Source: Candidatus Omnitrophota bacterium (GTDB lineage Bacteria > Omnitrophota > Gorgyraeia > Duberdicusellales > 4484-171). Taken from it: DNA of 64,000 nucleotides. Location: assembly GCA_021735655.1 (NCBI GenBank), contig JAIPGM010000001.1, positions 161,728 through 225,727 on the forward strand. Direction: 5' to 3'. Below are positions 34,141 through 57,059 of this stretch, in pieces. Every line of letters starts with the position of its first letter. Position 1 is the first letter of the stretch. A program made the position numbers and the translations under genes. The notes under the pieces were generated by a model. The model worked only from the letters and a program-made list of their open reading frames with translations, did no database searches and was not told the origin of the DNA.

Positions 34141-34146
34141 TAGACT

Positions 34147-35115: not shown

Positions 35116-35197
35116 AACCGCGCCTTTTTCAGGACTTTTCTTTTTATTCTATTGATTTTTTTCCTTCGCTATTGATTTGTAATTTGGTTGGAATTCA

Positions 35198-35215
35198 TTG
35201 AATTTAATGTATAAT
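35198..35215 (+). promoter_or_regulatory. Putative sigma70-like promoter with an extended -10 (TGTATAAT), in the 143-nt AT-rich gap ahead of the glf-like gene.
   Basis: TTGAAT at about 35198 and TGTATAAT at about 35208..35215. The -35/-10 spacing is non-canonical, so the call rests mainly on the extended -10. This is the only sizeable intergenic gap in the downstream operon. Confidence 0.2.
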
Positions 35216-37349: not shown

Positions 37350-40300
37350 GGATAATAGAATTTAATAATGTTTGGGAGAAGTACCGGATTAAATTTGTAA
37401 GGGACAGGAAAGTTTCTTGGGAAGAAATTTGGGCTTTAAGCAATATAGACTTTACAGTTAATAAGGGTGAAGTTATAGGAATAATTGGTGAAAATGGTGC
37501 CGGAAAAACTACTTTATTAAAATTAATCGCTGGCATGTTTGCTCCGGATAGAGGAGATATATCTGTTCGAGGAAAGGTATCGGTATTGATGGAGCTAGGG
37601 GCTGGTTTTAATCCTGAGTTTACCGGGAGGGAAAATGTTATTCTTAATGCCCGTATCTACGGGTTAGATACAGACATAGTTGAACAGCAAATGGAGAAAA
37701 TCGTCGAATTTGCTGATATTGGTAAATTTATCGATGCCCCGGTTAAATATTATTCACAGGGCATGTATACCCGTTTAGCATTTGCTTTGGCTATATTTGT
37801 AGAGCCGGATATTCTTTTAATTGATGATATTCTATCGGTAGGCGATGCTGACGCACAAAAGAAATGTATTGATAAAGTATTCAAGTTAAAGGAATCGGGA
37901 AAGACTATTATTTTAGTAAGTCATGACATGCATATGATAAGTAGGCTGTGCGATCGAGTTATCCTTTTGGATAAAGGTAAACTTATCGACAGAGGTAATC
38001 CCGCTGAGATTATCTATCATTACCTAGAGACTGTTGGGGATAAAAGTGGTATTGCAGTTTTAGAAAAGGATAAATTAAGATTAGTATTTAATAATGGGAG
38101 AATTACTTTTAGCTACGCAGGAGTGCCCCTTACTAAAGAATTTGGTGGTTATGTGGCTTATTTTGTTTCTTCCCTTGGTAGTTGGCTTTCTTCTTTTGAT
38201 TTATTCTGGAAGATAAGCCATTTTTCAGCTAATAAAATTGTTGCTGAGGGAGAATATAAAGGTAGAGGGCCTTCTCAGGTTTGGGTTTTGGAATTTTCTG
38301 AAAGCAGATTATGTTGGCAGGTGAAGATAAAAGACAAAGATGTAAGAGATCCGCATATAGATTTATTGCTTAACCCTCAATATAAAAAATGGTTAAATTT
38401 AGACCAAGGCGGGGGTTTTCCTTCCTTTATTTCTAAATCTACTTGGCAGAATTTGGGTTTAGCTAATTTTCCCCAAGCTATGGTCGGTTTAACCGCAGAC
38501 TTGGAAGTTAAGAGTTGTCCTTCTTTTGTTTTGACCGCAGAGGATAAGGATACTCAGATTAGACTTTTCAATACAGGTTATGACCAGGAAGGACGCATTA
38601 TTCAGTTGGATTTAAAGTTAGCCGGAGACAATCTATTTTTTCTTAAAATATTTCCTGAGAAAAATATATTTGAAGAGTATATTAAAAAAGAGAAAGATAT
38701 ATTTGAAGAGAGCATTAAAAAAGTAAACCAGCAACTAGCTTTAGAGAAAGAAGCGCAACAGGTCAGATTGCGGGATTTATCAACTTTTGCTTGGGGCAAT
38801 TTTAGTCTTTTTGCTGATAAGGAGGAAAAGTCTTTAAAGCTATACTTTAAGAATAAAGAAGTCACCAAAAAAGAAGGATTCCATATATCTTTTTTGATCA
38901 ATAATATCTGGTACGATACTACTTCTGCGGATTGGCAGATAACTAAAGAAAAGGAAGTTTTCATAATTAAACTATTTTGGAAAGTGTTTGATTTTAAACA
39001 AACTTGGAAATTTTCAGTTAAGAATGGGGGGCTTCTTTGGAATTTAAATTCCATCGTAAAGAAAACCTTCAATCCAGAGATTATGAAAATCGGTTTACTA
39101 TTAATAAGTGAGTACAAAACTTTCTTTTGCGGTTATCAGCAGGAAGATTTTCCAGATAAATTCAGCTCTTGGCAGGATATGTCTCTCAAAGACCCGAAAG
39201 CAAGATGTTTTGGTTTAAGAAAACAAACATCGTTACCGGCGATTGCTTTAGATAACAATGAAAGTTTTGATTGTATTGTACAGAACAGCGATGAAGAAAA
39301 TTCCTGTCGGGTACTACAGCTAAGCCTTCCCAGGCAAAGTTTTATTCAAAAAAATACATCTTTTGGTGTTCAACTTAGCCTGCTTGAAGAGGAAAGTCCC
39401 ATTGATCATTACCTTAAACAAGAAAGACAGGACCATTTACTTAGGCAACAAGAAGCAAAAAGATTGCTTAGCGCTAAAAGTACTATATCAAAAGATAATT
39501 TTCGTTTTTTTGTTGATAAGGAAGAAAAATCTTTAAGGATATACTTTAAGGACAAAGAGATTACTAAAGGGGCCGGTCTACATAGTTCATTATGCGTTTT
39601 CGGGAAGTGGTTTCATAGGGAGGAAACTAGGTGGCAGACAAAAAAGATTTCCGATGAAGAAGTAGTTTTAATTTTAAGTTATGACTCACTACCGCTTTTA
39701 CAAATTTTTTCTCTTAGTTTCAAAAGAAAGGGTATTCTAAGAGTTAAAGTCGAAATGGAAATAAGCGAGCAGATTCATTTGTCTGATCATCATCTGAAGC
39801 TTGAGCTTCAAGATGACTATAATAATTGGGATACTGGCTATGAGCAAGGCAATTTTTTTATTGATCGATATGTGGATGAGATCGGTCCGATTAGACTAAA
39901 AGATAATAGAATTTCGAATATACTATTGAGATCAAACAATGAAAGTAAAATTCCAAAAATGCTTTTGAAAATTATTTCCCAAATTGATAGACGAATTATA
40001 AACCTTTATAAGCGAAGAAGTGAAGATGGAGAATGCGTTGGCCTTTGCTCTCCTTTGATTGTATCTAAAAAAGAAGAACTGGTTAAACCTGGAAAGTATA
40101 CTTATTTCGAAGGAGAAATCATATTTGGAAAAGAAGCTAAATTAGAAAGAGAAGCTTCTAGGGTAGATATTGTCGAGCTTAAAAAAGATGATATAAGATT
40201 TGTTTTTGATCGTGGCAGAGTTAAAATTTTCTGGAAGGAAGAAGAGTTAACTTCGGAATTAGGAATTTATACCTCATTGCGTTCAAAAGGAATCTGGCAG

Positions 40301-40813
40301 GATTCTTACCAGGCAGCTTGGGAAATAGAGCATAAAGCTAAGGAAAAAATTGTGGCAACTGGAGGTTGGCCTTACCTTCCCATTTCTCAAACATGGAAAT
40401 TAGAGTTGCTCGGCAAGAATTCAATATCTTGGCAAGTTGACATGGAGATTTACGGTGAAGTTAATTTAGAGATAGAACAGGCTAGTGTAATGATTTCTTC
40501 TAAATACAGGAATTGGGAAATTCCCAGTTTTAACAGCGGTAAATTTCTTGATGTCTATGTTAAGAATCACGATATTCTACCTTTTAGATTTTGGTCTGGG
40601 GATGCAAACAAGATAGCTGCTGTTTCAGAATGTTTTCCCTCGATAATTTTTAAAAGCGAAAGACAAGATAAAGAAATGCAGGCGGTTATAGAAAATACAG
40701 GTATTTTATATAGGGCAAGGTTGTTGCAGTATCAAAGTACAAGTAATAATGCAATTTTGCCAGGTAAATATCCATACTTTAGGGGGATGATAGAAATTGA
40801 GACTAGGAAGTAA
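37346..40813 (+). CDS. ABC transporter ATP-binding protein (Wzt/TagH-like) with a C-terminal extension of about 900 aa made of four tandem copies of a ~120-aa domain.
   Basis: Walker A GENGAGKTTLLKLIAG, the ABC signature region YSQGMYTRLAFALAI and Walker B LLIDDILSVGD are present. The remainder is internally repetitive (see the repeat feature). Confidence 0.8.
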   Translation: MRIIEFNNVWEKYRIKFVRDRKVSWEEIWALSNIDFTVNKGEVIGIIGENGAGKTTLLKLIAGMFAPDRGDISVRGKVSVLMELGAGFNPEFTGRENVILNARIYGLDTDIVEQQMEKIVEFADIGKFIDAPVKYYSQGMYTRLAFALAIFVEPDILLIDDILSVGDADAQKKCIDKVFKLKESGKTIILVSHDMHMISRLCDRVILLDKGKLIDRGNPAEIIYHYLETVGDKSGIAVLEKDKLRLVFNNGRITFSYAGVPLTKEFGGYVAYFVSSLGSWLSSFDLFWKISHFSANKIVAEGEYKGRGPSQVWVLEFSESRLCWQVKIKDKDVRDPHIDLLLNPQYKKWLNLDQGGGFPSFISKSTWQNLGLANFPQAMVGLTADLEVKSCPSFVLTAEDKDTQIRLFNTGYDQEGRIIQLDLKLAGDNLFFLKIFPEKNIFEEYIKKEKDIFEESIKKVNQQLALEKEAQQVRLRDLSTFAWGNFSLFADKEEKSLKLYFKNKEVTKKEGFHISFLINNIWYDTTSADWQITKEKEVFIIKLFWKVFDFKQTWKFSVKNGGLLWNLNSIVKKTFNPEIMKIGLLLISEYKTFFCGYQQEDFPDKFSSWQDMSLKDPKARCFGLRKQTSLPAIALDNNESFDCIVQNSDEENSCRVLQLSLPRQSFIQKNTSFGVQLSLLEEESPIDHYLKQERQDHLLRQQEAKRLLSAKSTISKDNFRFFVDKEEKSLRIYFKDKEITKGAGLHSSLCVFGKWFHREETRWQTKKISDEEVVLILSYDSLPLLQIFSLSFKRKGILRVKVEMEISEQIHLSDHHLKLELQDDYNNWDTGYEQGNFFIDRYVDEIGPIRLKDNRISNILLRSNNESKIPKMLLKIISQIDRRIINLYKRRSEDGECVGLCSPLIVSKKEELVKPGKYTYFEGEIIFGKEAKLEREASRVDIVELKKDDIRFVFDRGRVKIFWKEEELTSELGIYTSLRSKGIWQDSYQAAWEIEHKAKEKIVATGGWPYLPISQTWKLELLGKNSISWQVDMEIYGEVNLEIEQASVMISSKYRNWEIPSFNSGKFLDVYVKNHDILPFRFWSGDANKIAAVSECFPSIIFKSERQDKEMQAVIENTGILYRARLLQYQSTSNNAILPGKYPYFRGMIEIETRK
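38036..40813 (+). repeat. Four tandem protein-level repeats of a ~120-aa domain in the Wzt-like C-terminus. The same domain also occurs at about 40935..41280 (N-terminus of the next gene) and about 50265..50620 (C-terminus of a B12-rSAM).
   Basis: Aligned blocks: LRLVFNNGRITFSYAGVPLTKEFGGYVA, KSLKLYFKNKEVTKKEGFHISFLINNIWYDTTSADWQITKEKE, KSLRIYFKDKEITKGAGLHSSLCVFGKWFHREETRWQTKKISDEE, IRFVFDRGRVKIFWKEEELTSELGIYTSLRSKGIWQDSYQAAWEIEHKAKEK, LRIDYLDKGIGMSWNNSPITENVHFNVGLNTLGLWTDSSKAHWQIMDQGED and LKIDFSQKGSGRLYYDNKALTKDVGLNASFHANGRWFDSSSAKCRVA. Each is followed by an LP(L/I)SQ.W.(I/L)...W.(V/I).(M/L)E(I/F) block. Confidence 0.75.
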
Positions 40814-43163
40814 TTATCAAAAGTTTCGAAATCATCTAAGCGCGGGGGGTTTGATTTATGCTGTCTATAGAGGTATAAAATATTTTATTTATTTGCCGCA
40901 GAGGAGAAATTGTAAGCGTAAACAAAAACAAATAATGCTTATTAACGGCAAGCTAAGAATAGATTATTTGGATAAAGGGATTGGCATGTCTTGGAATAAT
41001 TCCCCAATTACCGAAAATGTACACTTTAATGTCGGGCTTAATACTTTAGGATTATGGACAGATTCTTCAAAGGCTCATTGGCAAATTATGGATCAAGGAG
41101 AAGATTATCTCAAGGTCAAGGTAATTTTCCAGGAGTTACCTTTGAGCCAGAATTGGCTAATAAAGTTAGAGGGCGACCACCAAATATACTGGAAGATAGA
41201 TTTAGAAATAGAAGAGCATCTTCATATTGATGAATTCCGGATGGTTTGCGGAGTTAACCGTAAGTATAAAACTTGGATTAATAGCTTTCAGGAGAAAGTT
41301 TTTCCCCGGCTTAATCAATATTGGCAAGATTTATGTCTAGATAATGTTTTTACTTCTTTTGTGGGAGTAAGGTTTCCTACTGGAAACACTCTCTTGCCTT
41401 CATTGGTATTTGAATCTTGCGATGATAGCAGAGTTTTTTCCCCCCTTGTTCAAAATACCCCTTTAGATATTAATACCCATATTATAGGATTTAGAAAGAT
41501 TAATCACGAAGATGAAAGGGATTATCCGCCGGGTTGTTATCAGCTTTTTGCTGGCAGAATAAAATTATACGAAGACAATTATCTGTTAGATAAGAAAATA
41601 GAAGATGTGCGTCAAGATTACTTTAAGTCTACAATGAAACGAGTAAGTGCTATTTCCGAAGCCAAAGAATTAAAAGTTATGCTAGTAAATCTACCTTGGC
41701 AGAATAACGGGGTAGGGGGAGTAAGGGCTGGCTCTCGTTGGCCGCACATGAAAGATTTAAGCGAAGGAAATTACTTACCATTTCCTTTTTTTCTTGCTTA
41801 CGCCACCTCTCTTTTAGAAAAAAACGGTATCAAGGCTGACTTAGTTGATGCTATCGCAGAATGTTTATCCGAAGATAAGTTTATCGAGCGGCTTTTAGGA
41901 GCTAATTGTAATGTTTTAGTTGTTGAGACCTCTGTGCCTTCATTTTACCATGATCTGCAGCTATTAAGGAAGTTATCAAATTTTGGTTTTACAATAATTT
42001 TATGCGGTCCAAATTCTGAAATTTATAAATTTGAATTTTTAAAAGAAAATAGATTCATTAATTATGTTTTATTCGGAGAATATGAATTTACGCTTTTGGA
42101 ATTGACGAAGATTATTTCTAAGGGCAAAAAAGATCTTACTTTTGTAAAAGGCCTTATTTGGAGAGATGAAAAAGGTAATATTATTAAGAATCATCCTCGG
42201 GAGCCTTTTGATATAAATTGTTTACCTTGGCCTCACAGGGATAAGCTTCCGATGGAAAAATATTGGGATTTACCTGGTGATATTCCTCATCCTTCGGTTC
42301 AAATAGTTGCCTCGCGGGGTTGTCCTTTTGGTTGCAGTTTTTGCCTTTGGCCTCAGATTCTTTTTGGCGGAAAGACCTATAGAGTGAGGGACGTAACTGA
42401 TTGCATTGATGAAATGGAGTACTTAGTAAGAGAAAAAGGCTTTAAATCAGTCTATTTCGATGATGATACTTTTAATGTCGGAAAAGCTAGGATGCTTGAT
42501 TTTTGCAATGAGATTATAAAGAGAAAGCTAGATAATGTCCCCTGGGCAATTATGGCTAAAGCCGACCTTATGGATGAGGAGATTTTAGATAAGATGAAGG
42601 AGGCTGGGTTACATGCGGTAAAGTATGGAGTAGAGAGTGCTTCGCAAGAGTTAGTGGATAGGTGTGGAAAATGTCTAGACCTTAAAAAAGCAGAGCAGAT
42701 GATTAAATATAGCCAACATTTAGGCATAAAGGTTCATTTGACTTTTTCCTTTGGTCTTCCTGGAGAAACTAAGGAGACAATTAAAAAAACAGTTGATTAT
42801 GCTTTAAAATTAGATCCACAGTCAGTTCAATTTTCAATTATTACACCTTTTCCAGGCACAACTCTTTTTGAAGAGCTAGATAAAAAGGAAAAAATTCTTA
42901 CTAAGAATTGGTCTTTGTATGATGGTCATTATAGTTGTGTTTTCCAGCCGGATAACCTTTCTTTGGGAGATTTAGAAGAATCAAAACAACATGCTTACAG
43001 GTTGTGGCTAGATTATCAAAGGAAAAAAAGAGGATTGCTGGGTGATCTAAAAAGGTTCTATAATTATGCACAAAAAGATGGTTTAGGCAATGCAGTTAAG
43101 AAGACTAAAGATTACTTGAATTATTCTATTTTTCATAGAAAGAAGTTTATCGGTAAGATATGA
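40797..43163 (+). CDS. B12-binding radical SAM protein (class B rSAM) with an N-terminal copy of the shared ~120-aa domain.
   Basis: VQIVASRGCPFGCSFCLW is the CxxxCxxC motif in the class-B context, preceded by a Rossmann-like B12-binding region. The start overlaps the upstream gene by 17 nt. Confidence 0.75.
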   Translation: MRLGSNYQKFRNHLSAGGLIYAVYRGIKYFIYLPQRRNCKRKQKQIMLINGKLRIDYLDKGIGMSWNNSPITENVHFNVGLNTLGLWTDSSKAHWQIMDQGEDYLKVKVIFQELPLSQNWLIKLEGDHQIYWKIDLEIEEHLHIDEFRMVCGVNRKYKTWINSFQEKVFPRLNQYWQDLCLDNVFTSFVGVRFPTGNTLLPSLVFESCDDSRVFSPLVQNTPLDINTHIIGFRKINHEDERDYPPGCYQLFAGRIKLYEDNYLLDKKIEDVRQDYFKSTMKRVSAISEAKELKVMLVNLPWQNNGVGGVRAGSRWPHMKDLSEGNYLPFPFFLAYATSLLEKNGIKADLVDAIAECLSEDKFIERLLGANCNVLVVETSVPSFYHDLQLLRKLSNFGFTIILCGPNSEIYKFEFLKENRFINYVLFGEYEFTLLELTKIISKGKKDLTFVKGLIWRDEKGNIIKNHPREPFDINCLPWPHRDKLPMEKYWDLPGDIPHPSVQIVASRGCPFGCSFCLWPQILFGGKTYRVRDVTDCIDEMEYLVREKGFKSVYFDDDTFNVGKARMLDFCNEIIKRKLDNVPWAIMAKADLMDEEILDKMKEAGLHAVKYGVESASQELVDRCGKCLDLKKAEQMIKYSQHLGIKVHLTFSFGLPGETKETIKKTVDYALKLDPQSVQFSIITPFPGTTLFEELDKKEKILTKNWSLYDGHYSCVFQPDNLSLGDLEESKQHAYRLWLDYQRKKRGLLGDLKRFYNYAQKDGLGNAVKKTKDYLNYSIFHRKKFIGKI

Positions 43164-46100
43164 AGAATTATCTAGTCACCTGGGATAAAATATGTAAGGG
43201 TATAACTAAGCAAAAGAAGATATTTTGTGGCCCACACACTGTCCAAATAGATTTAACCGACAAATGCAATAGTAGCTGCGTTGCTTGTTGGATTCACTCA
43301 CCTTTAGTTGAGGAAAAAAAATCATTTCCAGAAGGCAAAAAACAACTTTCTTTCGAATTAGTTAAAAGTTTGATTAATGATTTGTCTGATTTAGGAACTC
43401 AGGAGGTAATTTTATCCGGATCAGGGGAGCCATTTTTATATCCAGAAATAAAAGAGGTTATAAAAAATATAAAGTCAAAAAATATGTATCTAAATATAAT
43501 TACCAATGCTTCTCTTATCGATGAGGAAATGGCAGAGCTGTTAGTAAAATGCAAAGTCGATTTAATTACTGCCAGCATATGGGCCGGTGATGCTGAAACT
43601 TACAGCTTAACTCATCCAGGAAAAAGCGAAGCTGATTTCGAAAAAATAAAGAGTAACTTAAAGAAATTGGCTTTTTATAAGAAGCGGTATGGTTCATTGG
43701 AGCCGCATTTAAAATTATATAATGTAATTTGCAGTAAAAATTATAGAAATATTGAGGAAATGGTTGATTTTGCTAAATCAATGGATGCCGATTCTTTAGA
43801 GTTTCAGGTTGTTGATATAATTTCTGGGAAAACAGATCATTTGGCCCTGAAAGATGCCTATAAGAGCGAGATAGTAAATCAATTGGACAATATAAGAAAG
43901 CGAAAAGATTTAATATCTTTTAATACGCCTAAAGAAATGCCGATAGATAGTTTTATTGATGAGGAATTTTTTGATTTTGGAAAGATTTGGAAAAATTACA
44001 AAAACGGCTTTTGCGTTTCTCAGTGTAGCAGTTCTTTGGTTTGCAAAAAAGATCACGAGATAAAAGATAAGAGAATTATTGTTTCAGAGTCGACATCAAC
44101 CAGAGGGACTCGTCCGGTTGCATTTTGGTATAAATTTGAAAATAATATATGTAAAACTTGCGAGGAAAATATTGAGTGCGTTGACGATGAAAATGCAGTG
44201 AGCATAAAATTGTTGAATATGTTGGGTATTGGTTCATTTTTGAGGAGATTATTGCGCTCTGATTTAGAGAGAGGGATATATGAAAAGCAAATAAATAGCA
44301 TCCCATGTTATATAGGGTGGTATTATTCTCGTATTTTAGCTAATGGTGATGTTATCCCTTGTTGCAAGGCAGGTAAGTTATCTTTAGGTAATATTAAGAA
44401 AAGAACTTTTTCTAAAATTTGGCATTCCTATCGATATAAAAAGTTTCGGCTTAACGCTAAGAATTTAACTAAGCATCATAAGTATTTTTCTAACATCAAT
44501 TGCATCAAGAGTTGCGATAATTGGGGAGTAAATTTAGAAATCGACGGGAGATTGAAGGAATTTGAAAATAAAGAGAAAAAAAAGGAGCCTTACCTTTTAA
44601 CTATCAAGAATAGCATTATAAAGGGTAGGGTTGAGGATACGCTTGCAAAAATTACTCGTAATATTAAACCGAATAATTTAAAAAAGAGATATTCAGAAAT
44701 TTTAGGTGTATTTGATGGTGAACATGGTTATAAAGGTCCATTCCACGTTCAGATAGACTTGACTAATGATTGCAATAACACTTGCATTGCTTGTTGGTGC
44801 AATTCACCTCTTTTGAAAGAGAAACGATTATCGGCTGATAAAAAAAATCAATATTTACCTTTAGGAATGGTAAAGGAATTATTGGATGAGATTACTAATA
44901 TGGGTGCTACTGAGGTCTATTATTCAGGAAGTGGTGAACCATTTATGCATCCAGCGATTATGGAGATTCTCGATTATTCAAAAAAGAAAGGTTTAATCTG
45001 TCACGTAAATACTAATTTTACTCTTCTTAATCAAGAAAAGATAGATTGCTTAATCGATATGGAGGTTGACCATCTTACGGTGAGTGTTTGGGCGGCTACG
45101 GCCGAAACTTATGCAAAAACTCATCCTAATAAAACCGAGGCTGACTTTCAACGGATAAAAGAGAATTTACTATATCTGAACTTACGAAAGAAAAGTAAGC
45201 CCTGTATAAAAATTTATAACGTTATTTTTAACATGAATTACCTTGAAGTTGAGAAGATGCTTGATTTTGCCGTTGAGACTAAATCTGAATCTTTAGAATT
45301 TACCCTTGTAGATACTATGCCTGGGGCTACTGATATGCTTGCTTTAAATCAAGGACAGTTGGATGAGCTTAATGATTTATGCAGGAAAATAAAATTAAAA
45401 TTAGATAAAAATTACATAATTAGGAGTAAAAAGGTATTGCTTTTTCAGTTTGAGCAGTTTTTGAGAAGGATTTCTGTTTCTCAAGATGTCCAGGAGGCAA
45501 AATACGATAGAGGTGTTATTGATAGTATGCCTTGTTATATTGGTTGGCTTTTTGCACGAATAATTCCTAACGGGGAAGTTCATTCTTGTCTTAAGGCGCA
45601 TAGAATTCCGACCGGTTCTTTGTATAAAGATAGATTTTTCGAAATTTGGAATAGTGCTAAACAGGCACATTTTCGTAAAAAGACTTTAGTTTGCAGAAAA
45701 GATGATCCTTTCTTTAGGTTGATTGGCAACGATCCCAATACAAAGGAGGCCGGTTGTTACAAGAGTTGCGATGATATCGGGAGGAACACTTGGATGCATA
45801 ACAAGATGAATATGTTGACGCCACTGGGAAGGCTGACACTTAAGTACGTAGCTAAAGCCATGAAGCCTCTAAGGAGGCTTAGGTCCAAAAACGATAATTT
45901 TAAGAATTACCACAGTGACCCTTTAATTGCCGGGGTCATCCATGGCCGGAAGGCTTTTTTGGGACCCGAACAAGTAGTAATTGATCCGACCAATAAGTGT
46001 AATTTGCAATGCATTTCTTGTTGGATGTATTCGCCATTATTGAAAAAAAATAAACCAGCTTTGGATTTATTGAAACAAGAATTATCTAAAGAGGTACTTA

Positions 46101-47014
46101 TTAAATTAATCGATGATTTAGCTGATTTAGGAACAAAGCGTATTAGGTTCACTGGTGGCGGAGAGCCTTTTATGCATAAAGATTTGATGACAGTAATAGA
46201 GCATGCCCGAAAAAAGAATATTTTAGTTGCGGTAACTACGAACTTTGGTTTGGTCTCTAGACAGGATATTCTTAGATTGTGTGATTTGGGATTGGAGGAG
46301 TTATGCATAAGCATTTGGGGTTCTTCATCGAGAGTCTACAATTTGGTTCATCCTGGTACCGGTGAGGATTATTTTAAGAAATTAAAAGAAAATCTTTCTT
46401 ATTTGAAAGGGCTAAATAAGTATAAACCGCGGACTACCTTTGCTAATGTAATCATGAATAATAATTTCACTGATTTTGAAGCAATGTATGATTTTGCTTT
46501 AGATCATGGAGCTGATGCAGCCTATTTTACCTTGGTTGATATTATTTCCGGTCAAACCGATAAGTTCTTGTTGAATAAAGATGAACGAAGCGAATTGCTA
46601 AAGAGAGCTCTTATGGTTCAGCAACGAAATAAAGATAACAAGCTGCAGCTTGAATTTTTTGAGAATTTTCTAAAAAGAGTATCTAGTTTCCAAGGAGACT
46701 TTGAAAAAGGAGAATATGATAAATCGAGCATTGATCAATTGCCTTGTTATGCCGGCTGGATTTTTTCAAGAGTTTTGGCAGACGGAAGCGTTGCGCCCTG
46801 CTGCCGGGGGGTTAAAAAAATAATCGGCAACATCAAGACTAAATCTTTTAAAGATATTTGGTTTTCGCCCGAATACAATGAGTTTAGAGTTAAAGCAAAG
46901 TATTTATCGAAAAGCAACGCTTACTTTAAGGATATAGGCTGTATAAAAGAATGTGATAATTTGATGCATAATCAGGAGTTTCATAAAAGAATAAATCTAA
47001 AAGAAGGAGGTTGA
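43160..47014 (+). CDS. Triple-module radical SAM protein: three tandem rSAM plus SPASM/twitch-like modules in one 1,284-aa polypeptide.
   Basis: Three CxxxCxxC motifs: CNSSCVACW at about 43264, CNNTCIACW at about 44770 and CNLQCISCW at about 45995. Each is followed by a GGEP-type SAM motif (SGSGEPFLYP, SGSGEPFMHP, TGGGEPFMHK) and a C-terminal Cys-rich auxiliary-cluster region (CYIGWYYSRILANGDVIPCCKAG, CYIGWLFARIIPNGEVHSCLKAH, CYAGWIFSRVLADGSVAPCCRGV). Confidence 0.8.
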   Translation: MKNYLVTWDKICKGITKQKKIFCGPHTVQIDLTDKCNSSCVACWIHSPLVEEKKSFPEGKKQLSFELVKSLINDLSDLGTQEVILSGSGEPFLYPEIKEVIKNIKSKNMYLNIITNASLIDEEMAELLVKCKVDLITASIWAGDAETYSLTHPGKSEADFEKIKSNLKKLAFYKKRYGSLEPHLKLYNVICSKNYRNIEEMVDFAKSMDADSLEFQVVDIISGKTDHLALKDAYKSEIVNQLDNIRKRKDLISFNTPKEMPIDSFIDEEFFDFGKIWKNYKNGFCVSQCSSSLVCKKDHEIKDKRIIVSESTSTRGTRPVAFWYKFENNICKTCEENIECVDDENAVSIKLLNMLGIGSFLRRLLRSDLERGIYEKQINSIPCYIGWYYSRILANGDVIPCCKAGKLSLGNIKKRTFSKIWHSYRYKKFRLNAKNLTKHHKYFSNINCIKSCDNWGVNLEIDGRLKEFENKEKKKEPYLLTIKNSIIKGRVEDTLAKITRNIKPNNLKKRYSEILGVFDGEHGYKGPFHVQIDLTNDCNNTCIACWCNSPLLKEKRLSADKKNQYLPLGMVKELLDEITNMGATEVYYSGSGEPFMHPAIMEILDYSKKKGLICHVNTNFTLLNQEKIDCLIDMEVDHLTVSVWAATAETYAKTHPNKTEADFQRIKENLLYLNLRKKSKPCIKIYNVIFNMNYLEVEKMLDFAVETKSESLEFTLVDTMPGATDMLALNQGQLDELNDLCRKIKLKLDKNYIIRSKKVLLFQFEQFLRRISVSQDVQEAKYDRGVIDSMPCYIGWLFARIIPNGEVHSCLKAHRIPTGSLYKDRFFEIWNSAKQAHFRKKTLVCRKDDPFFRLIGNDPNTKEAGCYKSCDDIGRNTWMHNKMNMLTPLGRLTLKYVAKAMKPLRRLRSKNDNFKNYHSDPLIAGVIHGRKAFLGPEQVVIDPTNKCNLQCISCWMYSPLLKKNKPALDLLKQELSKEVLIKLIDDLADLGTKRIRFTGGGEPFMHKDLMTVIEHARKKNILVAVTTNFGLVSRQDILRLCDLGLEELCISIWGSSSRVYNLVHPGTGEDYFKKLKENLSYLKGLNKYKPRTTFANVIMNNNFTDFEAMYDFALDHGADAAYFTLVDIISGQTDKFLLNKDERSELLKRALMVQQRNKDNKLQLEFFENFLKRVSSFQGDFEKGEYDKSSIDQLPCYAGWIFSRVLADGSVAPCCRGVKKIIGNIKTKSFKDIWFSPEYNEFRVKAKYLSKSNAYFKDIGCIKECDNLMHNQEFHKRINLKEGG

Positions 47015-47020
47015 AGTTAA

Positions 47021-47839
47021 TTGAATATGGCGGGTAAAGTGGGTGCTATCGATTTTCAATTATTTTTAAGAAAAATCAGCCTTGAGCGTTTTTTTCAAAG
47101 TTTTTATTATTTTAAATGGTTGGAATACCCTTTAGTCTACAATAACCTTGAACTAAAAGCAGGTGAACAGTATCTCGATATCGGTAGTGGAAAGTCCATT
47201 TTTCCTCTATTTGTCGTAGCGAAAAATAACTGTAACGTGCACGTATTTGATGATCAGTCCATTATAAAAGACAGTATTACTTATTATCAGAGCAATATTA
47301 GAAAGATGGGGTTATGCAATATTTCTGGAAAAAATTTCTTGATTCACGAAGCTACAGAGAAAGGACAGCTCGATTTTCCTGATAATTACTTTGATAGAGT
47401 TTCTTGTATTTCGGTATTAGAGCATATTAAGGGCAATGGTGATAGTGTAATGATGCAGGAAATATCAAGAATTTTAAAAAAAGGCGGGAGGGCTGTGATA
47501 ACTTTTCCGTTTAATGGCAAGGATTATATAGAAGAAGATAACCCAGAAGGGGTAGGATATTTCCAGCGGAAGTATAGTGTAGCGGCGATTAAAGAGCGGA
47601 TAATTGATCCAGCCAATTTAAAGGTTAAGAAGGTTATATATTTTGGAGAACGTTATATAAGTTTTGGGGAACAATACTTGCAGAATAAATTTAGAAAAAT
47701 AAATTGGCTCATACCTTTATTCGCGCCTATTTTATGGAGGGTGTGCCATTATTATGAAGGTGAATATCGCAATTTTTATGAGCGAGCAATAGATAAAAAA
47801 GGTACTGGCGTAGCGTGTATTGTTTTTGATAAGATTTGA
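47021..47839 (+). CDS. Class I SAM-dependent methyltransferase.
   Basis: YLDIGSGKS is motif I. ISVLEHI and ILKKGGRAVITFP are the post-I and II motifs typical of the Methyltransf_11/23 families. Confidence 0.65.
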   Translation: MNMAGKVGAIDFQLFLRKISLERFFQSFYYFKWLEYPLVYNNLELKAGEQYLDIGSGKSIFPLFVVAKNNCNVHVFDDQSIIKDSITYYQSNIRKMGLCNISGKNFLIHEATEKGQLDFPDNYFDRVSCISVLEHIKGNGDSVMMQEISRILKKGGRAVITFPFNGKDYIEEDNPEGVGYFQRKYSVAAIKERIIDPANLKVKKVIYFGERYISFGEQYLQNKFRKINWLIPLFAPILWRVCHYYEGEYRNFYERAIDKKGTGVACIVFDKI

Positions 47840-47864
47840 ATAAGCAAAATTGTGAAAATTTAAG

Positions 47865-48737
47865 ATGCTGACTTTTCCTAAATATCTTTCAATCCAAACT
47901 ACTTCTCTATGCAATGCTTCTTGTGTATTTTGTCCCTATAAAGATATAAAAGATGTAAGGTTCAAGACAATAATGGATAGAGGCCTTTATGAAAAAGTTA
48001 TTAATGAATGCAGTAACCATAAAGATATTGAATGCATTATAGTTTACATGAATAACGAGCCCTTAACTGATCCTTGCATAGTTGAGAGAATAAATTATGC
48101 CAAAGATAAAGTTCCTTGGGCTAGTGTGCATATCTTGACCAATGGAGCCTTACTTAGCGATGACCTGGCTGATAAACTTATTGATTCTCGTCTAGACTGG
48201 ATCGGGGTAAGCTTTCATGGGATCAGAAAAGAAACTATAGAGCGGGCAATGGGCATTCCTTATGAGATCAGCTTGAAGAGAATAACCAATTTTATCGAAA
48301 AAGCAAAAGCGAAGAAAAATATAAAGAACTATTTTATGCTAACTTTTTTGCGCCATGTATATTTGACTCCTCAAGAGCGGGAAGAGGCTATTAGTTTTTG
48401 GAGAAAACTGGGGATAGAAAGAATAAGCTATTTTGACGGGCCCATATCTCGGGCCAGCAATGTAACTAATTTACCAAAAGTCTACCATCAAGGCAAGATC
48501 AGTGGATGTAATTCTATCTGGGCTGATGAGATGCTTCATGTGGTAGAGGATGGTAAGGTTATTTTGTGCTGCATGGATTGGCGAAGAGAAGTAATTTTAG
48601 GCGACCTAAACAAACAAAGCATCCATGAAATATGGAATGGCAAAAGAAGAAAGATTTGGGATATGATTCGTGGAACAGGAGAGGTTCCTGAAGGATTTTT
48701 GTGCCGCAGGTGCGAAGAGGCTAAGCAAGAGATTTAA
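47865..48737 (+). CDS. Radical SAM protein with a SPASM/twitch-like C-terminal domain.
   Basis: SIQTTSLCNASCVFCPY is the CxxxCxxC motif. The C-terminal GCNSIWADEMLHVVEDGKVILCCMDW...ILGDLNKQSIHEIWNG is SPASM-like. Confidence 0.75.
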   Translation: MLTFPKYLSIQTTSLCNASCVFCPYKDIKDVRFKTIMDRGLYEKVINECSNHKDIECIIVYMNNEPLTDPCIVERINYAKDKVPWASVHILTNGALLSDDLADKLIDSRLDWIGVSFHGIRKETIERAMGIPYEISLKRITNFIEKAKAKKNIKNYFMLTFLRHVYLTPQEREEAISFWRKLGIERISYFDGPISRASNVTNLPKVYHQGKISGCNSIWADEMLHVVEDGKVILCCMDWRREVILGDLNKQSIHEIWNGKRRKIWDMIRGTGEVPEGFLCRRCEEAKQEI

Positions 48738-48740
48738 AGG

Positions 48741-50909
48741 ATGCTCATGAAAAATGAAAATTGCGAATTAATTTTTGTAATGACTCCGCCTTGGCAGACA
48801 AAGATGCCGCCTTTAGGCTTGGCCTATTTAGCCAGTTTTTTGAAGTCAAACAATATTAACGTAGATGTCATAGATTTGAATGTGGATCTTTTTAATAATG
48901 CTCAAGAATGCCATAAATATTTTTGGGATATAGAAACAATAAGTAATTTTGGTTCGCTTCGGATTGCCCAAGATTTTATTAAGGCATTCAATAAAGAACT
49001 TGAAAATTTTGTTGATCGAATCTGTAGTCATCCTGCAAAGTTGGTCGGTTTTTCTACTACGGTAGCTAGTATAAATATCGCCACCTACCTTACTCATCGG
49101 ATAAAATCAAAAGATCCTTCGAAAATAATTATTTTAGGCGGGCCAGGATGTTTTTTGGATACTTGCAATATAGATCCTGAAAGGGTGGTAGATATTTTTG
49201 TCATTGGCGACGGAGAGCTGCCTTTATTGGATATAGTTAAAAGATTTAAAGATAAACAGTCTTTGTCTGATTTGTTGGAGGTTCCTGGGACAATAATTTG
49301 TCTAGATAAGAAATATCATGACTTTTCACCGGCGAATCCTGTTAAGCAGATAAACGATATTCCTTTTCCTACTTTTTCGGAGTTCGAGCTGGATGAATAC
49401 CATAAAGAACATGTTTACAAACCAATTCCAATTATTACCAGCAGAGGCTGTATAAATAAATGCAGTTTTTGCGTAGACCATAAGCTCAGTAATCCTTTTA
49501 GATTTCGAAATCCGCACAAAATATTTGAAGAGATAAAATACCATGTAGAAAATAATTGTAAAAAAGAGTTTGAGTATAACGATCTACTATGTAATGGAAA
49601 TTTAAAGCAATTGGAGCAGCTTTGCGACCTGATCATTGAAAGCGGCCTGTCTATAAAATGGACAAGCTATGCGGCCATAAGGAAAGGTATGAGTTTAGAG
49701 TTATTTCAGAAGATGCAGAAGGCGGGATGCAGATTTTTATGTTATGGTATGGAGTCAGCTTCAGATTTAGTTTTAGATAAGATGAATAAAAGATATAATT
49801 CTCATACGGCAGAGGATGTTATTAGAAAAACCCATTCCTCAGGTATCGAGACAGGAATCAACATTATAGTTGGCCACCCCGGTGAGTCGAATAAAGAATT
49901 TAACCAAACTTATAGATTTATCAAAAGAAACAAAGACTACATTGATCAAATCACAAACCTGTCTACTTGTTTTTTAATACCGACTTCGGATTTAGCTGAG
50001 AATATGAGCAATTTCGGTATTTATTTTTATTCTCCTTTGAAAAGGATGCCAAAATTCTTATTTCGAAATAAAGAGCTTGAGCCTAATTATGAAAATTTCT
50101 GCGCCTATCCTCATAATACTCCTGCGATTAGAGCAAAACGAGCCAGAAAAATTATAACTCTTGCTTCAAAGATAGCTATACCGATTACTATTTTGAACTA
50201 TCAAAAGCAGCACGATATGGGTATGGGGGATTTTCTAGTCCAAACTCAAGAAGCGGAAAAAGTTTTTCGTTGTAAGAAGTTAAAGATAGACTTTAGTCAA
50301 AAAGGAAGCGGTAGGTTATATTATGACAATAAGGCCTTAACTAAAGACGTAGGCCTAAATGCTTCCTTTCATGCCAATGGGCGATGGTTTGATTCTTCTT
50401 CGGCAAAGTGTCGGGTAGCCAGATCCAACAGAGGCTTGGAAATAAGAATGAGTTGGCCGGAGATTTCTTTGTTTCAATGCTGGACGATAAAAACAGAAGG
50501 TGATTCTTCTGTCGAATGGCGGGTAAAAACAGAGTTTAAAAGGTCTTTGGAGCTATCTCAATATAAGATCGGCATTATCTTGTCACAGGAATACGATAGT
50601 TGCCAAGTTAATGGTGAAGAACACCGATTCTCCGATAATTTTACCGAGAACTGGGAGGAAGCATTGTTTTTGAAGCTTGATTCGATAAGCATCGGCTCTA
50701 AGGGATTTTTACCGATGATGACCCTGAAGGAAGAATCCAAGGGTGGTGTGTTCGTGCAGGTCCATAATACCCCGCTTCACTTGCATACTCGAATGATTAA
50801 TTTTTGCCGTTTTGGCGAGAACCTTAAAGATGACCACAGCACTGAATCTTTATTGATCAAAAAAGGTGATGTTTGGAAAAATAAGCTAAAAATAAAATTA
50901 AAGGTTTAA
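48741..50909 (+). CDS. B12-binding radical SAM protein with a C-terminal copy of the shared ~120-aa domain.
   Basis: ITSRGCINKCSFCVDH is the CxxxCxxC motif, after an N-terminal Rossmann B12-binding region. The C-terminal 150 aa align with the Wzt-extension repeats. Confidence 0.75.
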   Translation: MLMKNENCELIFVMTPPWQTKMPPLGLAYLASFLKSNNINVDVIDLNVDLFNNAQECHKYFWDIETISNFGSLRIAQDFIKAFNKELENFVDRICSHPAKLVGFSTTVASINIATYLTHRIKSKDPSKIIILGGPGCFLDTCNIDPERVVDIFVIGDGELPLLDIVKRFKDKQSLSDLLEVPGTIICLDKKYHDFSPANPVKQINDIPFPTFSEFELDEYHKEHVYKPIPIITSRGCINKCSFCVDHKLSNPFRFRNPHKIFEEIKYHVENNCKKEFEYNDLLCNGNLKQLEQLCDLIIESGLSIKWTSYAAIRKGMSLELFQKMQKAGCRFLCYGMESASDLVLDKMNKRYNSHTAEDVIRKTHSSGIETGINIIVGHPGESNKEFNQTYRFIKRNKDYIDQITNLSTCFLIPTSDLAENMSNFGIYFYSPLKRMPKFLFRNKELEPNYENFCAYPHNTPAIRAKRARKIITLASKIAIPITILNYQKQHDMGMGDFLVQTQEAEKVFRCKKLKIDFSQKGSGRLYYDNKALTKDVGLNASFHANGRWFDSSSAKCRVARSNRGLEIRMSWPEISLFQCWTIKTEGDSSVEWRVKTEFKRSLELSQYKIGIILSQEYDSCQVNGEEHRFSDNFTENWEEALFLKLDSISIGSKGFLPMMTLKEESKGGVFVQVHNTPLHLHTRMINFCRFGENLKDDHSTESLLIKKGDVWKNKLKIKLKV

Positions 50910-50919
50910 AAATTTACAT

Positions 50920-53900
50920 ATGAATCTAACAGATAAAATTTTATTAGTGGGTCTTGCTCCTTGGGGAGTAGATACGCCACCCCTAGCCTTAGCTTGTTTA
51001 AGTACCTCTTTGAGGAATGCAAATATTAGCACTGAAGTATTTGATATGAATATTGAGCTTTACAATGCCGTTAATGAGCAAAGTAAATATTTGTGGAGTA
51101 TGAATTATTCTCATTGGTGGCGAGAGCCAGAAAGATATTCTGATATTAGAAAGGAATTAGATGTTTACATAGAACCTTTAATAAAGAAAATTTTAAGTTT
51201 TAAGCATAAGATAGTTGGCTTTTCACTTTCTACTAATTGCTCTGACCTTTTGTTGGAGGAGATAGTAAAAAGAATAAAAACTAGCGATCCCGATAAGGTA
51301 ATAATTCTAGGTGGTGTTTCAATTTCAATAAATGAGCAGAGAAATGATTTAATTAGGAAGTTAAGGACGCAGATAGATTACTGTGTGATTGGAGAAGGAG
51401 AAGAGGTACTTGTCGAATTGGTAAAGAAAATAGCTAGCAATAAGCTAGAAGATATAGGTCGATTGCCAGGCATAATTAAGAAGGGTGAGTTTGAAGGAGT
51501 TAAACAGAGGGCAGAGATCAAAGATTTTAATTCGCTGCCATTTCCTACATTTGAAGAATTCAATTTAAAAAAATATAAAGCACCCGTGAGCTTACCTATG
51601 GAATTTTCTCGTGGCTGCGTAGGTAGTTGTCCTTTCTGCGATTTTAAAAGCGTTTCTTCTGCCTTTAAGTCAAAAGCACCTTATTATATTATAAGCCAGA
51701 TAAAATTCTATAAAGAAAAATACAATATTATTCATATGAGCCTATCTGACCCAGCAGTAAATGGAGATATTAGGGTTCTTGAGCAAATATGTGATTTATT
51801 AATCGAAGCTAACCTTTCTGTAAATATAAATTCTCTGGCAATTCCCCGCAAGGAAATGACCTTAGAACTATTAGAGAGAATGAAGAAAGCAGGTTTTTAT
51901 CGTTTGGAGTATGGTCTAGAGAGCGGTTCGAATAAGATTCTCAAAGCAATGAGGAAAATATTTACTGTCGAAATTGCCGAGAAAGTTATCCGAGATACTT
52001 ATCAAGCAGGGATAAAAACATATCTCTATTTAATTGTGGGTTATCCACAGGAGACAGAGGATGATCTCAATCAGACCAAAGATTTTTTGAATAGAAACCG
52101 TCAGTATATTTCCATGATAAAGTCTATCAACCCTCTTTATGTAATGGCCGGTTCAGAGATATTTTGCAATCCCGATAAATATCAAGTCACATTACCGGCT
52201 AAAGATAGTGACAAGAGATGGTTTATTGGTGATAAGAATACATATTCTTTGCGAAAAGCCCGGATATTTGAACTTAAAAAAGTAGTTGCTAGTTTAAATA
52301 TTCCCTTTACCGAAGAGGCGGAATCTTTAGAGTTTACTGGAAACTCTTTAAATAAACAACAAGGAATCGTTGTAGGTGGAGGCAATCCATACGATAAAGA
52401 TGAGTCAACTACAGAAAATAAAATTATGTCTAGAGGATATGCAGAACAAAAAACAGATAAATATAGAGATAGTTTTTTATTAATTAATTTGCCCCCTTGG
52501 GGTCAAGAAAATCCTCATATCGGAGTAGGCTATGTGTGTAGCTATCTTCGTCATAAAGGCTTTAAGCCATCGGTCTTAGACTTGAATAAGAAATTTTATT
52601 TGAGTCAGCCAAATTTTCAAATGCTCTGGCATGTAGAAAATAAAAACTTTTGGTCAAATCAAGATTCTTTTCCTTTGATTTTAAAATTATTTAAGAAGGA
52701 AATAGATAAGGCAATAAATGATATTTTGTCTTCAGGTTGCAGCCTATTAGGTTTCTCGGTAGTTGACCCTAAAGAAAAAATAACTATAGAGTTCATTAGG
52801 AGAATAAAACGTAGGGATAAAAGTAAAAAGATAATTTTAGGTGGTCCGGCAACTTCTACTTATGAGCAGAGAAAGATATTTTTGGATAATGTTGAGGAAG
52901 AGATAGATACTTTTGTGATCGGCGAAGGCGAGCAAACTTTGTTTAAGGTAGTAGACCGAATTTTAAAGAAAAAAGAGCTTAAAGGTATCGAGGGTTGTTG
53001 CAGCCGGGATAATGGTAAGTGGGTTTGTCGAGAAAGCGGTGAGATTGTTTCTTTAGATAAGATTCCTTTCCCGACCTATGAGGAATTTGATTTGAGTCTA
53101 TACGGTAAATCTTTCCTTGTTGAATGGTCAAGAGGCTGTAGGAGTAAATGCGCTTTTTGCAAAAATTATCGGCTTTTTTCTTCTTATCGGTCAAAGTCAG
53201 CTGAATCGGTTATGAAGGAATTGAGATATCATAAGCAAAAGTATAATGTAGATGAATTCACTGTAGTCGATAATATTTTGAATGGTGATCTAAATACCTT
53301 GAATGATATTTGCGACAGGATAATAAAGGAAAATCTTCAAATTAGATGGACTGGGCAAATTGCCCCCCGCAAAGATATGAATTTTGAATATTTCCAAAAA
53401 ATGAAGCAGGCCGGATGTTTTAAACTTCAAATTGGCCTTGAGTCTGGTTCGAACAAGGTGTTAAAGTTAATGCATAAGAGCTTTACGGCAGAGATTTCTG
53501 AAAAAAATATAATTTTTGCTAAGAAAGCAGGCATTGAGACAGAAATTTTTACAATGATTGGTTTTCCCGGGGAGGCTGAGAAAGATTTTCAAGAAACTTA
53601 CGATTTTATAAAAAGAAATGCAAAATATCTGGATACCATAAAATCGATAAACACCTTACATCTAATAGCCGGAACTGAAATCTATGAGCAGAGAGAGCGT
53701 TTTAAAATAAAGCCTTTACCTCAAGAAAACTGGCATTATTTATGGGAAACTTATGAGGGAAATACATACAAGGTACGGGAAGAAAGAGCTAAGCGTATTC
53801 TAGGGTTAGCTTGCGATCTTAAGATTAAAGTTATGGAGACTAATATTATAGAGGGAAAAGAGCAAAAAGTTTTGCTTGAAAATCTCGGCTTATTGGAAAA

Positions 53901-54078
53901 ATCCCTGAATTCTTTGCAAGAGTTACCAGAAAAAGAAGAATTTAAGCTAAAAAGAAGAAATATTAATAAATGGTTAATCCTGATTTTTGTTTCTTTTTAC
54001 ACATTTTTTTATATTATTTATTTTTGGGTATTTATGATTTTTAGAAATAAAGTTCTCTTGGGGGGAAGAAAAAAGTGA
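50920..54078 (+). CDS. Tandem double B12-binding radical SAM protein with a C-terminal membrane anchor.
   Basis: Two complete B12-rSAM units with EFSRGCVGSCPFCDF and EWSRGCRSKCAFCKNY. The C-terminal hydrophobic helix is WLILIFVSFYTFFYIIYFWVFMIF. Confidence 0.75.
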   Translation: MNLTDKILLVGLAPWGVDTPPLALACLSTSLRNANISTEVFDMNIELYNAVNEQSKYLWSMNYSHWWREPERYSDIRKELDVYIEPLIKKILSFKHKIVGFSLSTNCSDLLLEEIVKRIKTSDPDKVIILGGVSISINEQRNDLIRKLRTQIDYCVIGEGEEVLVELVKKIASNKLEDIGRLPGIIKKGEFEGVKQRAEIKDFNSLPFPTFEEFNLKKYKAPVSLPMEFSRGCVGSCPFCDFKSVSSAFKSKAPYYIISQIKFYKEKYNIIHMSLSDPAVNGDIRVLEQICDLLIEANLSVNINSLAIPRKEMTLELLERMKKAGFYRLEYGLESGSNKILKAMRKIFTVEIAEKVIRDTYQAGIKTYLYLIVGYPQETEDDLNQTKDFLNRNRQYISMIKSINPLYVMAGSEIFCNPDKYQVTLPAKDSDKRWFIGDKNTYSLRKARIFELKKVVASLNIPFTEEAESLEFTGNSLNKQQGIVVGGGNPYDKDESTTENKIMSRGYAEQKTDKYRDSFLLINLPPWGQENPHIGVGYVCSYLRHKGFKPSVLDLNKKFYLSQPNFQMLWHVENKNFWSNQDSFPLILKLFKKEIDKAINDILSSGCSLLGFSVVDPKEKITIEFIRRIKRRDKSKKIILGGPATSTYEQRKIFLDNVEEEIDTFVIGEGEQTLFKVVDRILKKKELKGIEGCCSRDNGKWVCRESGEIVSLDKIPFPTYEEFDLSLYGKSFLVEWSRGCRSKCAFCKNYRLFSSYRSKSAESVMKELRYHKQKYNVDEFTVVDNILNGDLNTLNDICDRIIKENLQIRWTGQIAPRKDMNFEYFQKMKQAGCFKLQIGLESGSNKVLKLMHKSFTAEISEKNIIFAKKAGIETEIFTMIGFPGEAEKDFQETYDFIKRNAKYLDTIKSINTLHLIAGTEIYEQRERFKIKPLPQENWHYLWETYEGNTYKVREERAKRILGLACDLKIKVMETNIIEGKEQKVLLENLGLLEKSLNSLQELPEKEEFKLKRRNINKWLILIFVSFYTFFYIIYFWVFMIFRNKVLLGGRKK

Positions 54079-57058: not shown

Positions 57059-57059
57059 T

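Follow-up and report, generated by a model that had tools for sequence, protein, structure and literature searches.

In O-antigen export by ATP-binding cassette (ABC) transporters, as in Aquifex aeolicus and Escherichia coli O9a, the Wzm permease and the nucleotide-binding domain (NBD) of the Wzt ATPase are found beside GT4 glycosyltransferases, and a C-terminal extension past the NBD marks the carbohydrate-binding position of Wzt. The canonical extension, the ~140-aa jelly roll Wzt_C (PF14524), occurs only in the cap-dependent Wzt subclass. Radical S-adenosylmethionine (SAM) enzymes are known as tailors of sugars in small antibiotics and in one hopanoid head group. The class-B methylases GenK, GenD1, Fms7 and MoeK5, which join a cobalamin-type domain to a radical SAM domain, are established to act on sugars and set a precedent for methylating sugar carbons that are not activated, and for HpnJ, an enzyme of hopanoid cyclitol-ether formation, the reaction proposed is ring contraction on the glucosamine of bacteriohopanetetrol glucosamine (PMC9204698). 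The twitch enzymes BlsE, BtrN and DesII all act on sugars as well. AprD4, which serves apramycin C3′ deoxygenation, shares with HpnJ a B12-binding-like plus radical SAM layout and an amino-sugar ring as its target, and is a 1,2-diol dehydratase with the aminoglycoside paromamine as substrate. No report of radical SAM tailoring was found for exported cell-surface polymers. Here we analyze a 64,000-nucleotide stretch of DNA from a Candidatus Omnitrophota bacterium (GenBank assembly GCA_021735655.1, contig JAIPGM010000001.1, positions 161,728 to 225,727; hereafter the window, numbered from its first letter), in which a Wzm/Wzt exporter and two GT4 glycosyltransferases share a single gene array with eight radical SAM modules. 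We consider it fairly likely that this region is the core of an ABC transporter-dependent, O-antigen-type pathway for a cell-surface glycan that is tailored by radical SAM enzymes before export. The export route is of a known kind; the load of radical SAM modules, a domain shared between the exporter and the enzymes, and the distribution of that domain are without description in the papers searched.

Mapping of the window proteins onto related loci places the conserved part of the array at about 35259–56335 (Table 1). This segment encodes a homologue of UDP-galactopyranose mutase (UGM), Wzm, an 1155-aa Wzt, an HpnJ/AprD4-like radical SAM enzyme, a protein with three radical SAM and twitch modules, a methyltransferase, a second twitch enzyme, three class-B methylase-like modules and two GT4s. 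A preliminary description of the window, made from the letters and their open reading frames (ORFs), had counted about ten radical SAM domains in 23 kb, interleaved with glycosyltransferases, a methyltransferase and two ABC-2 exporters. That count holds exactly: the stretch from 40797 to 64000 contains ten modules, and five adjoining genes (40797–54078) account for eight of these, with Pfam Radical_SAM detected in every radical SAM gene it had named and the CX3CX2C motif intact in all ten. Pfam and NCBIfam likewise recover the interleaved glycosyltransferases (starting at 54075, 55211 and 60545), the class I methyltransferase (47021) and both ABC-2 systems (36567–40813 and 56381–57863). The density of modules is not a matter of chance, given that there are none in the first 40 kb and ten in the last 23 kb and that the arrangement recurs in 44 of 44 related loci. 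These loci derive from a scan of species-representative genomes that yielded 118 confirmed loci, 80 of which were fetched; counts out of 44 refer throughout to those related loci that are 18 kb or longer.

The exporter genes are tightly packed, with the 3′ end of wzm overlapping the start of wzt by 4 nt, so that the ATPase has an adjacent ABC-2 permease partner. The galactan Wzm/RfbD model heads the matches of the permease, below its cutoff, and the NBD aligns with the O-antigen Wzt of A. aeolicus (8dku) at 216 bits (E 5.9e-63) and with TarH at 186 bits, the TagH and Wzt models being its best matches below their equivalog cutoffs. Judged by sequence, the exporter (36567–40813) is of the Wzm/Wzt O-antigen type, with an undecaprenyl-diphosphate-linked polysaccharide as its putative cargo. 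The FAD enzyme encoded directly upstream had been described as a mutase that forms galactofuranose. It is a genuine homologue of the eukaryote-type UGM, with full-length homology to the Trypanosoma cruzi enzyme (PDB 4dsg; E 4.5e-46 over aa 8–418) and an alignment that retains the GGH and C-terminal R-x-G-x-W-x-Y stretches, though its score on the bacterial UGM model TIGR00031 (NCBIfam) is far under the cutoff (64.7 versus 303.75 bits) and it falls in the PRK07208 group. It is probably a nucleotide-sugar pyranose/furanose mutase.

Where the exporter departs from O9a-type and A. aeolicus systems is in the Wzt tail, ~900 residues past aa 235 that have no Pfam or PDB sequence match and no transmembrane (TM) segment. 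This tail holds four copies, R1 to R4, of an unannotated domain of ~215 aa, and two further copies stand at the N-terminus of the first radical SAM enzyme (gene 40797–43163) and at the C-terminus of a class-B enzyme (gene 48741–50909). This repeated domain, which links the exporter to the enzymes, was overlooked in the preliminary description. Most pairs among the six copies give BLASTP E values of 1e-20 to 1e-6, the weakest being R1 with R3 (E 0.004) and R1 with the class-B enzyme copy (E 0.4). A hidden Markov model (HMM) built from the six copies found no other copy in the window, and in the related loci it found 243 copies in 129 ORFs, located in Wzt tails (2–5 copies), at either end of radical SAM enzymes, between radical SAM modules, and in shorter ORFs without radical SAM. 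At a limit as loose as E ≤ 10, Pfam still has no model for any member of the domain family, and a profile search found 643 carriers among 1.84 billion representative proteins. The modelled domain adopts a mutarotase-like β-supersandwich, a carbohydrate-enzyme fold, with 6–11% identity to its structural matches. Galactose mutarotase-like supersandwiches of glycoside hydrolases (GH36, GH38, GH97) and OpgG/OpgD share this fold; the window domain differs from them in having no detectable sequence similarity and in its cytoplasmic context, on an ABC ATPase and on radical SAM enzymes. Canonical Wzt_C was considered for the tail and rejected, since aa 236–1155 give no Pfam match, no single copy gives one even at E ≤ 10, and the fold is different.

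The position of the array is nevertheless the one at which a carbohydrate-binding domain is normally found. In a distant relative of the locus, from a Desulfatiglandales metagenome-assembled genome (MAG; L063), homologous radical SAM genes adjoin Wzm and a Wzt of 414 aa in which canonical Wzt_C is present (PF14524, E 5.1e-22). The copies also keep their places, such that R1 pairs with R1 through R4 with R4 in 8 of 8 four-copy Wzt proteins at each position, and the last copy is R4-like in 25 of 25 multi-copy Wzt proteins. The domain and the enzymes are further joined in natural fusions: P0119 (1856 aa) combines a Wzt-type NBD, five domain copies and a radical SAM-SPASM module in a single chain, P0192 an NBD with eight copies, P0186 a PMT_2 GT-C glycosyltransferase with two copies, and in further proteins the domain bridges two different radical SAM enzymes. 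The L063 locus encodes a radical SAM-SPASM module fused to a GT4, a further GT4, two NDP-sugar epimerase/dehydratases and a 2778-aa protein holding six radical SAM domains (14615–22951, + strand), and another GT4-radical SAM-SPASM fusion is found in P0086. From these fusions and from the L063 locus it follows that the radical SAM enzymes are functionally tied to glycosyl transfer and to the exporter.

Pairwise comparison divides the eight core modules into four kinds, namely one HpnJ/AprD4-like enzyme of B12 type (~26% identity to the class-B modules), three mutually paralogous twitch modules in one 1284-aa chain (35–43% identity), a single, more distant twitch enzyme (~27% identity to the triple modules), and three paralogous class-B modules, two of them fused (~36% identity). 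The first enzyme had been called a B12-dependent radical SAM protein. Pfam makes no B12 call on it; NCBIfam HpnJ and BchE alignments span the region concerned and its orthologues are flagged PF02310. The nearest relatives of its core are HpnJ, BchE and AprD4, which are non-methylating enzymes of class-B type; HpnJ (TIGR03471) is the best model, at 235.9 bits versus a cutoff of 577.6, and AprD4 (PDB 6fd2) the best solved structure (E 1.9e-26). With such a shortfall the enzyme is not an HpnJ orthologue, and it differs from both HpnJ and AprD4 in its extra N-terminal domain and in its place within an exporter/GT4 operon, with no hpn gene in the window or the related loci and no hopanoid or aminoglycoside genes nearby.

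The triple protein and the single enzyme downstream (47865) had been described as SPASM-type, and Pfam does find SPASM in them, but the auxiliary domains contain one cysteine set (C-x17-19-CC-x43-45-C-x2-3-C) and are for this reason not full SPASM but twitch-like; the exception, with extra cysteines, is module 1 of the triple protein. In the insert that carries these, C295, C331 and C340 are invariant and C334 nearly so, and the other twitch modules are without it; the insert could bind a further metal or cluster. With a Cys-rich auxiliary cluster domain behind the radical SAM core, the modules belong to the Twitch/SPASM subgroup, BtrN is the top profile match to the auxiliary region, and BlsE, BtrN and DesII are the nearest characterised relatives. 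The window modules differ from these in being 15–17% identical, in their triplication within one chain, and in having relatives elsewhere that are fused to GT4, to the shared domain or to the Wzt NBD. The three remaining modules, a single and a double B12-dependent radical SAM protein as previously described, have the class-B layout of an N-terminal B12-binding domain and a CX3CX2C radical SAM core, and the PhpK, RiPP C-methyltransferase and ApyD models score best on them, all below cutoff. Compared with GenK, GenD1, Fms7 and MoeK5, whose products are small secondary metabolites, they form a paralogous set in a polysaccharide-export operon, one of the enzymes carries the shared domain, and they stay below every family cutoff.

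The core order is kept in more than 40 species-level genomes, mostly of Omnitrophota, and reads FAD enzyme, Wzm, long Wzt, HpnJ-like enzyme, one or more twitch enzymes, one or more class-B enzymes, GT4 and GT4, nearly always on one strand. A twitch enzyme is present in 44 of 44 loci, the HpnJ-like core in 41, a class-B module in 37, the Wzt NBD in 30 and Wzm in 28, and the number of radical SAM modules per locus ranges from 2 to 12 with a median of 6. Two loci (L023 and L032) reach twelve, and module number and degree of fusion vary widely among genomes. A search with the triple protein, which is 100% identical to an annotated protein of a ‘Candidatus Omnitrophica’ MAG, returned 94 relatives, and all the named ones are labelled Omnitrophota or Omnitrophica. 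In other genomes the neighbors are of the sort usual at surface-glycan loci and include GDP-mannose pyrophosphorylase (ManC), Wzy_C, a GT2 with a TM tail (18 loci), a further GT2 (11 loci), PMT_2 GT-C transferases (13 and 4 loci, 17 together), carbamoyltransferase (10), WecA/MraY-family transferase (7), GDSL esterases (6) and AsnB (5), as well as extra single radical SAM-SPASM genes (36 ORFs in 16 loci). Lipid-synthesis genes are not conserved in the related loci; GT4, GT2, GT-C, WecA-like and NDP-sugar genes are.

How might these components work together? We hypothesize that a lipid-linked glycan would be built in the cytoplasm by the GT4s, with a furanose sugar probably supplied by the UGM-like mutase. 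The HpnJ/AprD4-like enzyme may then rearrange, contract or dehydrate a sugar ring, the four BlsE/BtrN-like twitch modules may carry out oxidation, epimerisation or decarboxylation at sugar carbons, and the three class-B cobalamin-type modules may methylate unactivated carbons. By means of the shared domain, two of the enzymes would stay bound to the polymer, while the four-domain array on the Wzt ATPase, which stands in for the carbohydrate-binding domain usual in Wzt, would take up the completed polymer so that it can leave through Wzm. The architecture, its conservation, the fold and the fusions come from computation; the substrate and glycan binding by the domain are inferred, and the individual chemistries are extrapolations, since no core radical SAM module reaches a curated family cutoff. 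A more specific proposal, to which we give slightly less than even chances, is that Omnitrophota and a few other anaerobic phyla rewrite a surface polysaccharide after its assembly, using up to a dozen radical SAM modules coordinated by a cytoplasmic glycan-recognition domain. Such editing could add C-methyl groups, contract rings to give carbasugars, and epimerise or decarboxylate by radical chemistry, and the domain, in place of the Wzt carbohydrate-binding domain, would tether the enzymes to the polymer and couple editing to export. If the glycan is tailored as we suggest, unfamiliar sugar structures are predicted at the surface of cells in a phylum that is widespread and mostly uncultured and whose members are very small and partly host-dependent, the domain family is a possible genomic marker of such pathways, and enzymologists gain naturally fused, substrate-tethered radical SAM enzymes.

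Several observations weigh against a tailored, exported glycan. The operon in the window contains no initiating transferase and no O-antigen ligase, and no experimental precedent for radical SAM tailoring of a Wzm/Wzt-exported polymer was found in the literature. None of the core radical SAM modules attains a curated family cutoff, which only the unrelated HemW-like gene does, and the best NCBIfam matches of the class-B modules include C-methyltransferase models for peptides that are synthesized by ribosomes and post-translationally modified (RiPPs), with TIGR03975 at 280.1 versus a cutoff of 281.85 as the total for two modules. That the domain would bind glycan is suggested by its modelled fold, at the low identity given above, and a viral capsid protein and the P1 domain of YidC show this fold too. 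A WbdD-type terminator and WecA, too, are missing from the operon in the window, and literature searches on radical SAM enzymes with Wzt, O-antigen or polysaccharide, on twitch sugar epimerases, and on fused radical SAM-glycosyltransferases returned nothing relevant.

One alternative hypothesis, already raised in the preliminary description beside an exported glycoconjugate, is that the radical SAM enzymes modify a ribosomal peptide that the GT4s glycosylate and the ABC-2 pump exports. The scores of the class-B modules on RiPP C-methyltransferase, ApyD and PhpK models, the resemblance of the twitch module fold to SkfB, SuiB, PqqE and CteB, and a PqqD plus radical SAM pair from 63268 to the window end are in its favor. 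However, every RiPP-model score is under its cutoff, the pair lies 9 kb beyond the core and occurs in none of the related loci, and the search for short ORFs that had been proposed as a check found no unoccupied ORF of 20–90 aa between 35 and 57 kb, where genes overlap or abut. No conserved short-ORF family appeared among the top clusters of the loci, which is weak evidence given that the clustering covered only ORFs of 150 aa and longer. Moreover, the core enzymes carry no PqqD or RRE and have a mutarotase-like supersandwich appended instead, the exporter is of Wzt/TagH type rather than a peptide exporter, and the neighbors in other genomes are glycan genes. A RiPP is thus highly improbable as the product of the core. 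Tailoring of membrane lipids, in which the enzymes would act on the chains or head groups of membrane-spanning, ladderane-like or hopanoid-type lipids and the pump would flip the product, seems to us very unlikely, although it can draw on more than one observation: the best model of the first enzyme belongs to the hopanoid pathway, a ladderane-type ‘lipid biosynthesis B12/rSAM’ model also scores, GDGT-MAS is among the fold and sequence matches, Omnitrophota are reported to have homologues of the lipid radical SAM enzymes Mss and Hbs, and one survey reports ‘ladderane’ biosynthetic gene cluster calls in the phylum. The scores in question are far under their cutoffs (HpnJ 236 versus 578 bits, ladderane 108 versus 360), HpnJ itself is proposed to act on a glucosamine ring rather than on lipid (PMC9204698), the genes conserved at the loci are those for glycans and not for lipids, and the appended domain has a carbohydrate-enzyme fold. 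Metagenome surveys that score such clusters as ‘ladderane’ or RiPP gene clusters may be making a wrong call. A housekeeping or cofactor role of the core enzymes, which had been named as the outcome that would overturn the earlier interpretation, was rejected, as no curated cutoff is reached and the conserved neighborhoods are glycan-related; only the HemW-like gene fits that description.

A further hypothesis retains the glycan pathway and assigns a different role to its parts, such that the shared domain is a docking module assembling the radical SAM enzymes on the Wzt tail, or the enzymes act on nucleotide-sugar precursors and not on the polymer. The presence of one domain on both exporter and enzymes, the positional orthology of R1 to R4 across species and the existence of direct NBD-radical SAM fusions would suit docking, and among solved twitch enzymes the closest, BlsE and DesII, have nucleoside- or nucleotide-linked sugars as substrates. 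Against docking, canonical carbohydrate-binding Wzt_C occupies the same position in L063, and a PMT_2 GT-C glycosyltransferase also has the domain fused to it, an arrangement better suited by glycan binding on both sides of the membrane, with the reservation that hydropathy alone does not settle the topology of P0186. Soluble domains of PMT_2 GT-C-type enzymes are usually extracytoplasmic. We regard docking or precursor tailoring as unlikely, if the most credible of these alternatives. The tailored and exported glycan remains the preferred interpretation: the part of the preliminary description that proposed such a glycoconjugate is supported by the synteny of Wzm/Wzt with GT4s, the glycan-related neighbors, the fusions of radical SAM modules with GT4 or with the Wzt ATPase, and the carbohydrate-binding-type fold of the domain.

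Table 1. Features of the window, with positions in nucleotides; fractions give the related loci in which a gene is found.
Feature	Position	Strand	Remarks
9751-aa ORF	56–29311	+	By residue: GT4 ~242–300; GH77 4-alpha-glucanotransferase 868–1147; Bac_transf phosphoglycosyl transferase 4225–4404; Glu/Leu/Phe/Val dehydrogenase ~5679–5881; PLP decarboxylase ~7545–7737; GH100-like ~9000–9147; second GT4 ~9470–9599
Opp-type importer	29352–35115	+
Promoter-like site	35188–35215	+	TTGGAA-16-TATAAT; consensus match only (10/12 positions), weak evidence
Uninterrupted same-strand array	35259–57863	+	Intergenic gaps −25 to +45 bp
FAD enzyme, eukaryote-type UGM homologue	35259–36566	+	16/44, accessory
Wzm-type ABC-2 permease	36567–37349	+	ABC2_membrane; TM-like segments
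Wzt-type NBD	37346–38050	+	aa 1–235 of 1155-aa protein (37346–40813)
Domain copy R1, Wzt tail	38051–38695	+
Domain copy R2, Wzt tail	38777–39430	+
Domain copy R3, Wzt tail	39476–40147	+
Domain copy R4, Wzt tail	40169–40798	+	Best conserved; always last in orthologues
First radical SAM gene	40797–43163	+	One radical SAM module (Pfam)
Domain copy, N-terminus of first enzyme	40929–41642	+	Copy used for modelling
B12-binding-like and radical SAM core	41682–43007	+	CX3CX2C at aa 509
Triple radical SAM gene	43160–47014	+	Three radical SAM modules, each with Pfam SPASM
Triple protein, module 1	43238–44539	+	Radical SAM and twitch-like auxiliary domain with extra Cys-rich insert
Triple protein, module 2	44738–45784	+	Radical SAM and twitch; module type in all related loci
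Triple protein, module 3	45962–46969	+	Radical SAM and twitch
Class I SAM methyltransferase	47021–47839	+	2/44, accessory
Single twitch enzyme, second type	47865–48737	+	Pfam Radical_SAM and SPASM
Class-B gene	48741–50909	+	One radical SAM and one B12-binding domain (PF02310, PF04055)
Class-B methylase-like core	48960–50030	+
Domain copy, C-terminus of class-B enzyme	50256–50903	+
Double class-B gene	50920–54078	+	Two radical SAM and two B12-binding domains (PF02310 and PF04055 twice)
Double class-B, module 1	51151–52254	+
Double class-B, module 2	52660–53715	+
GT4a glycosyltransferase	54075–55235	+	31/44
GT4b glycosyltransferase	55211–56335	+	15/44
Second ABC-2 pump, DrrA/DrrB type	56381–57863	+
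HemW-like gene	57871–59217	−	Convergent; one radical SAM module
Five more genes	59338–64000
PqqD-like protein	63268–63561	+	97 aa
Radical SAM gene	from 63561	+	One radical SAM module; 1-nt overlap with preceding gene; cut by window end

The genes around the conserved segment do not travel with it. The Opp genes, the second ABC-2 pump, the HemW-like gene, a hydrolase, the third GT4 (60545), a phosphodiesterase and PqqD are each found in 0 of 44 loci, and the last six, PqqD together with its radical SAM partner, are excluded from the system for this reason. The second pump follows straight after the GT4 genes on the same strand. Although the HemN-like gene of the preliminary description does encode a radical SAM protein, it reaches the HemW cutoff (205.5 versus 205.4 bits) and most likely has a housekeeping role. 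The PqqD pair is likewise present as described, by Pfam, without being part of the system; its radical SAM member matches ACGX-system and SbtM-type models best, far below cutoff, and the pair is the sole RiPP-like element in the window, with no precursor visible.

Among the related loci, the ~470-aa protein that recurs in five (L004 13897–15300, L007 3125–4561, L012 5430–6866, L028 14298–15689 and L032 13829–15289) carries the shared domain at its C-terminus and an unannotated N-terminal part of ~250 aa with weak similarity to the B12-binding end of class-B enzymes and no radical SAM motif. An Aminicenantes chromosome (CP070825.1), of a different phylum, encodes an HpnJ-like core and a twitch module 64–69% identical to those of the window (L045, 8524–11470), with no Wzm/Wzt and no domain copy detected at that locus; the similarity could reflect lateral transfer.

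Every long ORF in the window is on the + strand bar one, and the sole sizeable gap upstream of the array, of 143 bp, holds the promoter-like site. An Rfam search of the window matched no riboswitch or other RNA element. GC content is 0.34–0.37 over 36–56 kb, which covers the cluster, versus 0.40–0.43 in the giant ORF, and drops of this kind are common at surface-polysaccharide loci. The giant ORF and the Opp importer were considered as members of the system and dropped, neither being conserved beside the cluster. With enzyme domains scattered along its 9751-aa chain, the giant ORF fits the ‘multi-enzyme’ class of giant proteins described in Omnitrophota (bioRxiv 10.64898/2026.06.07.730766).

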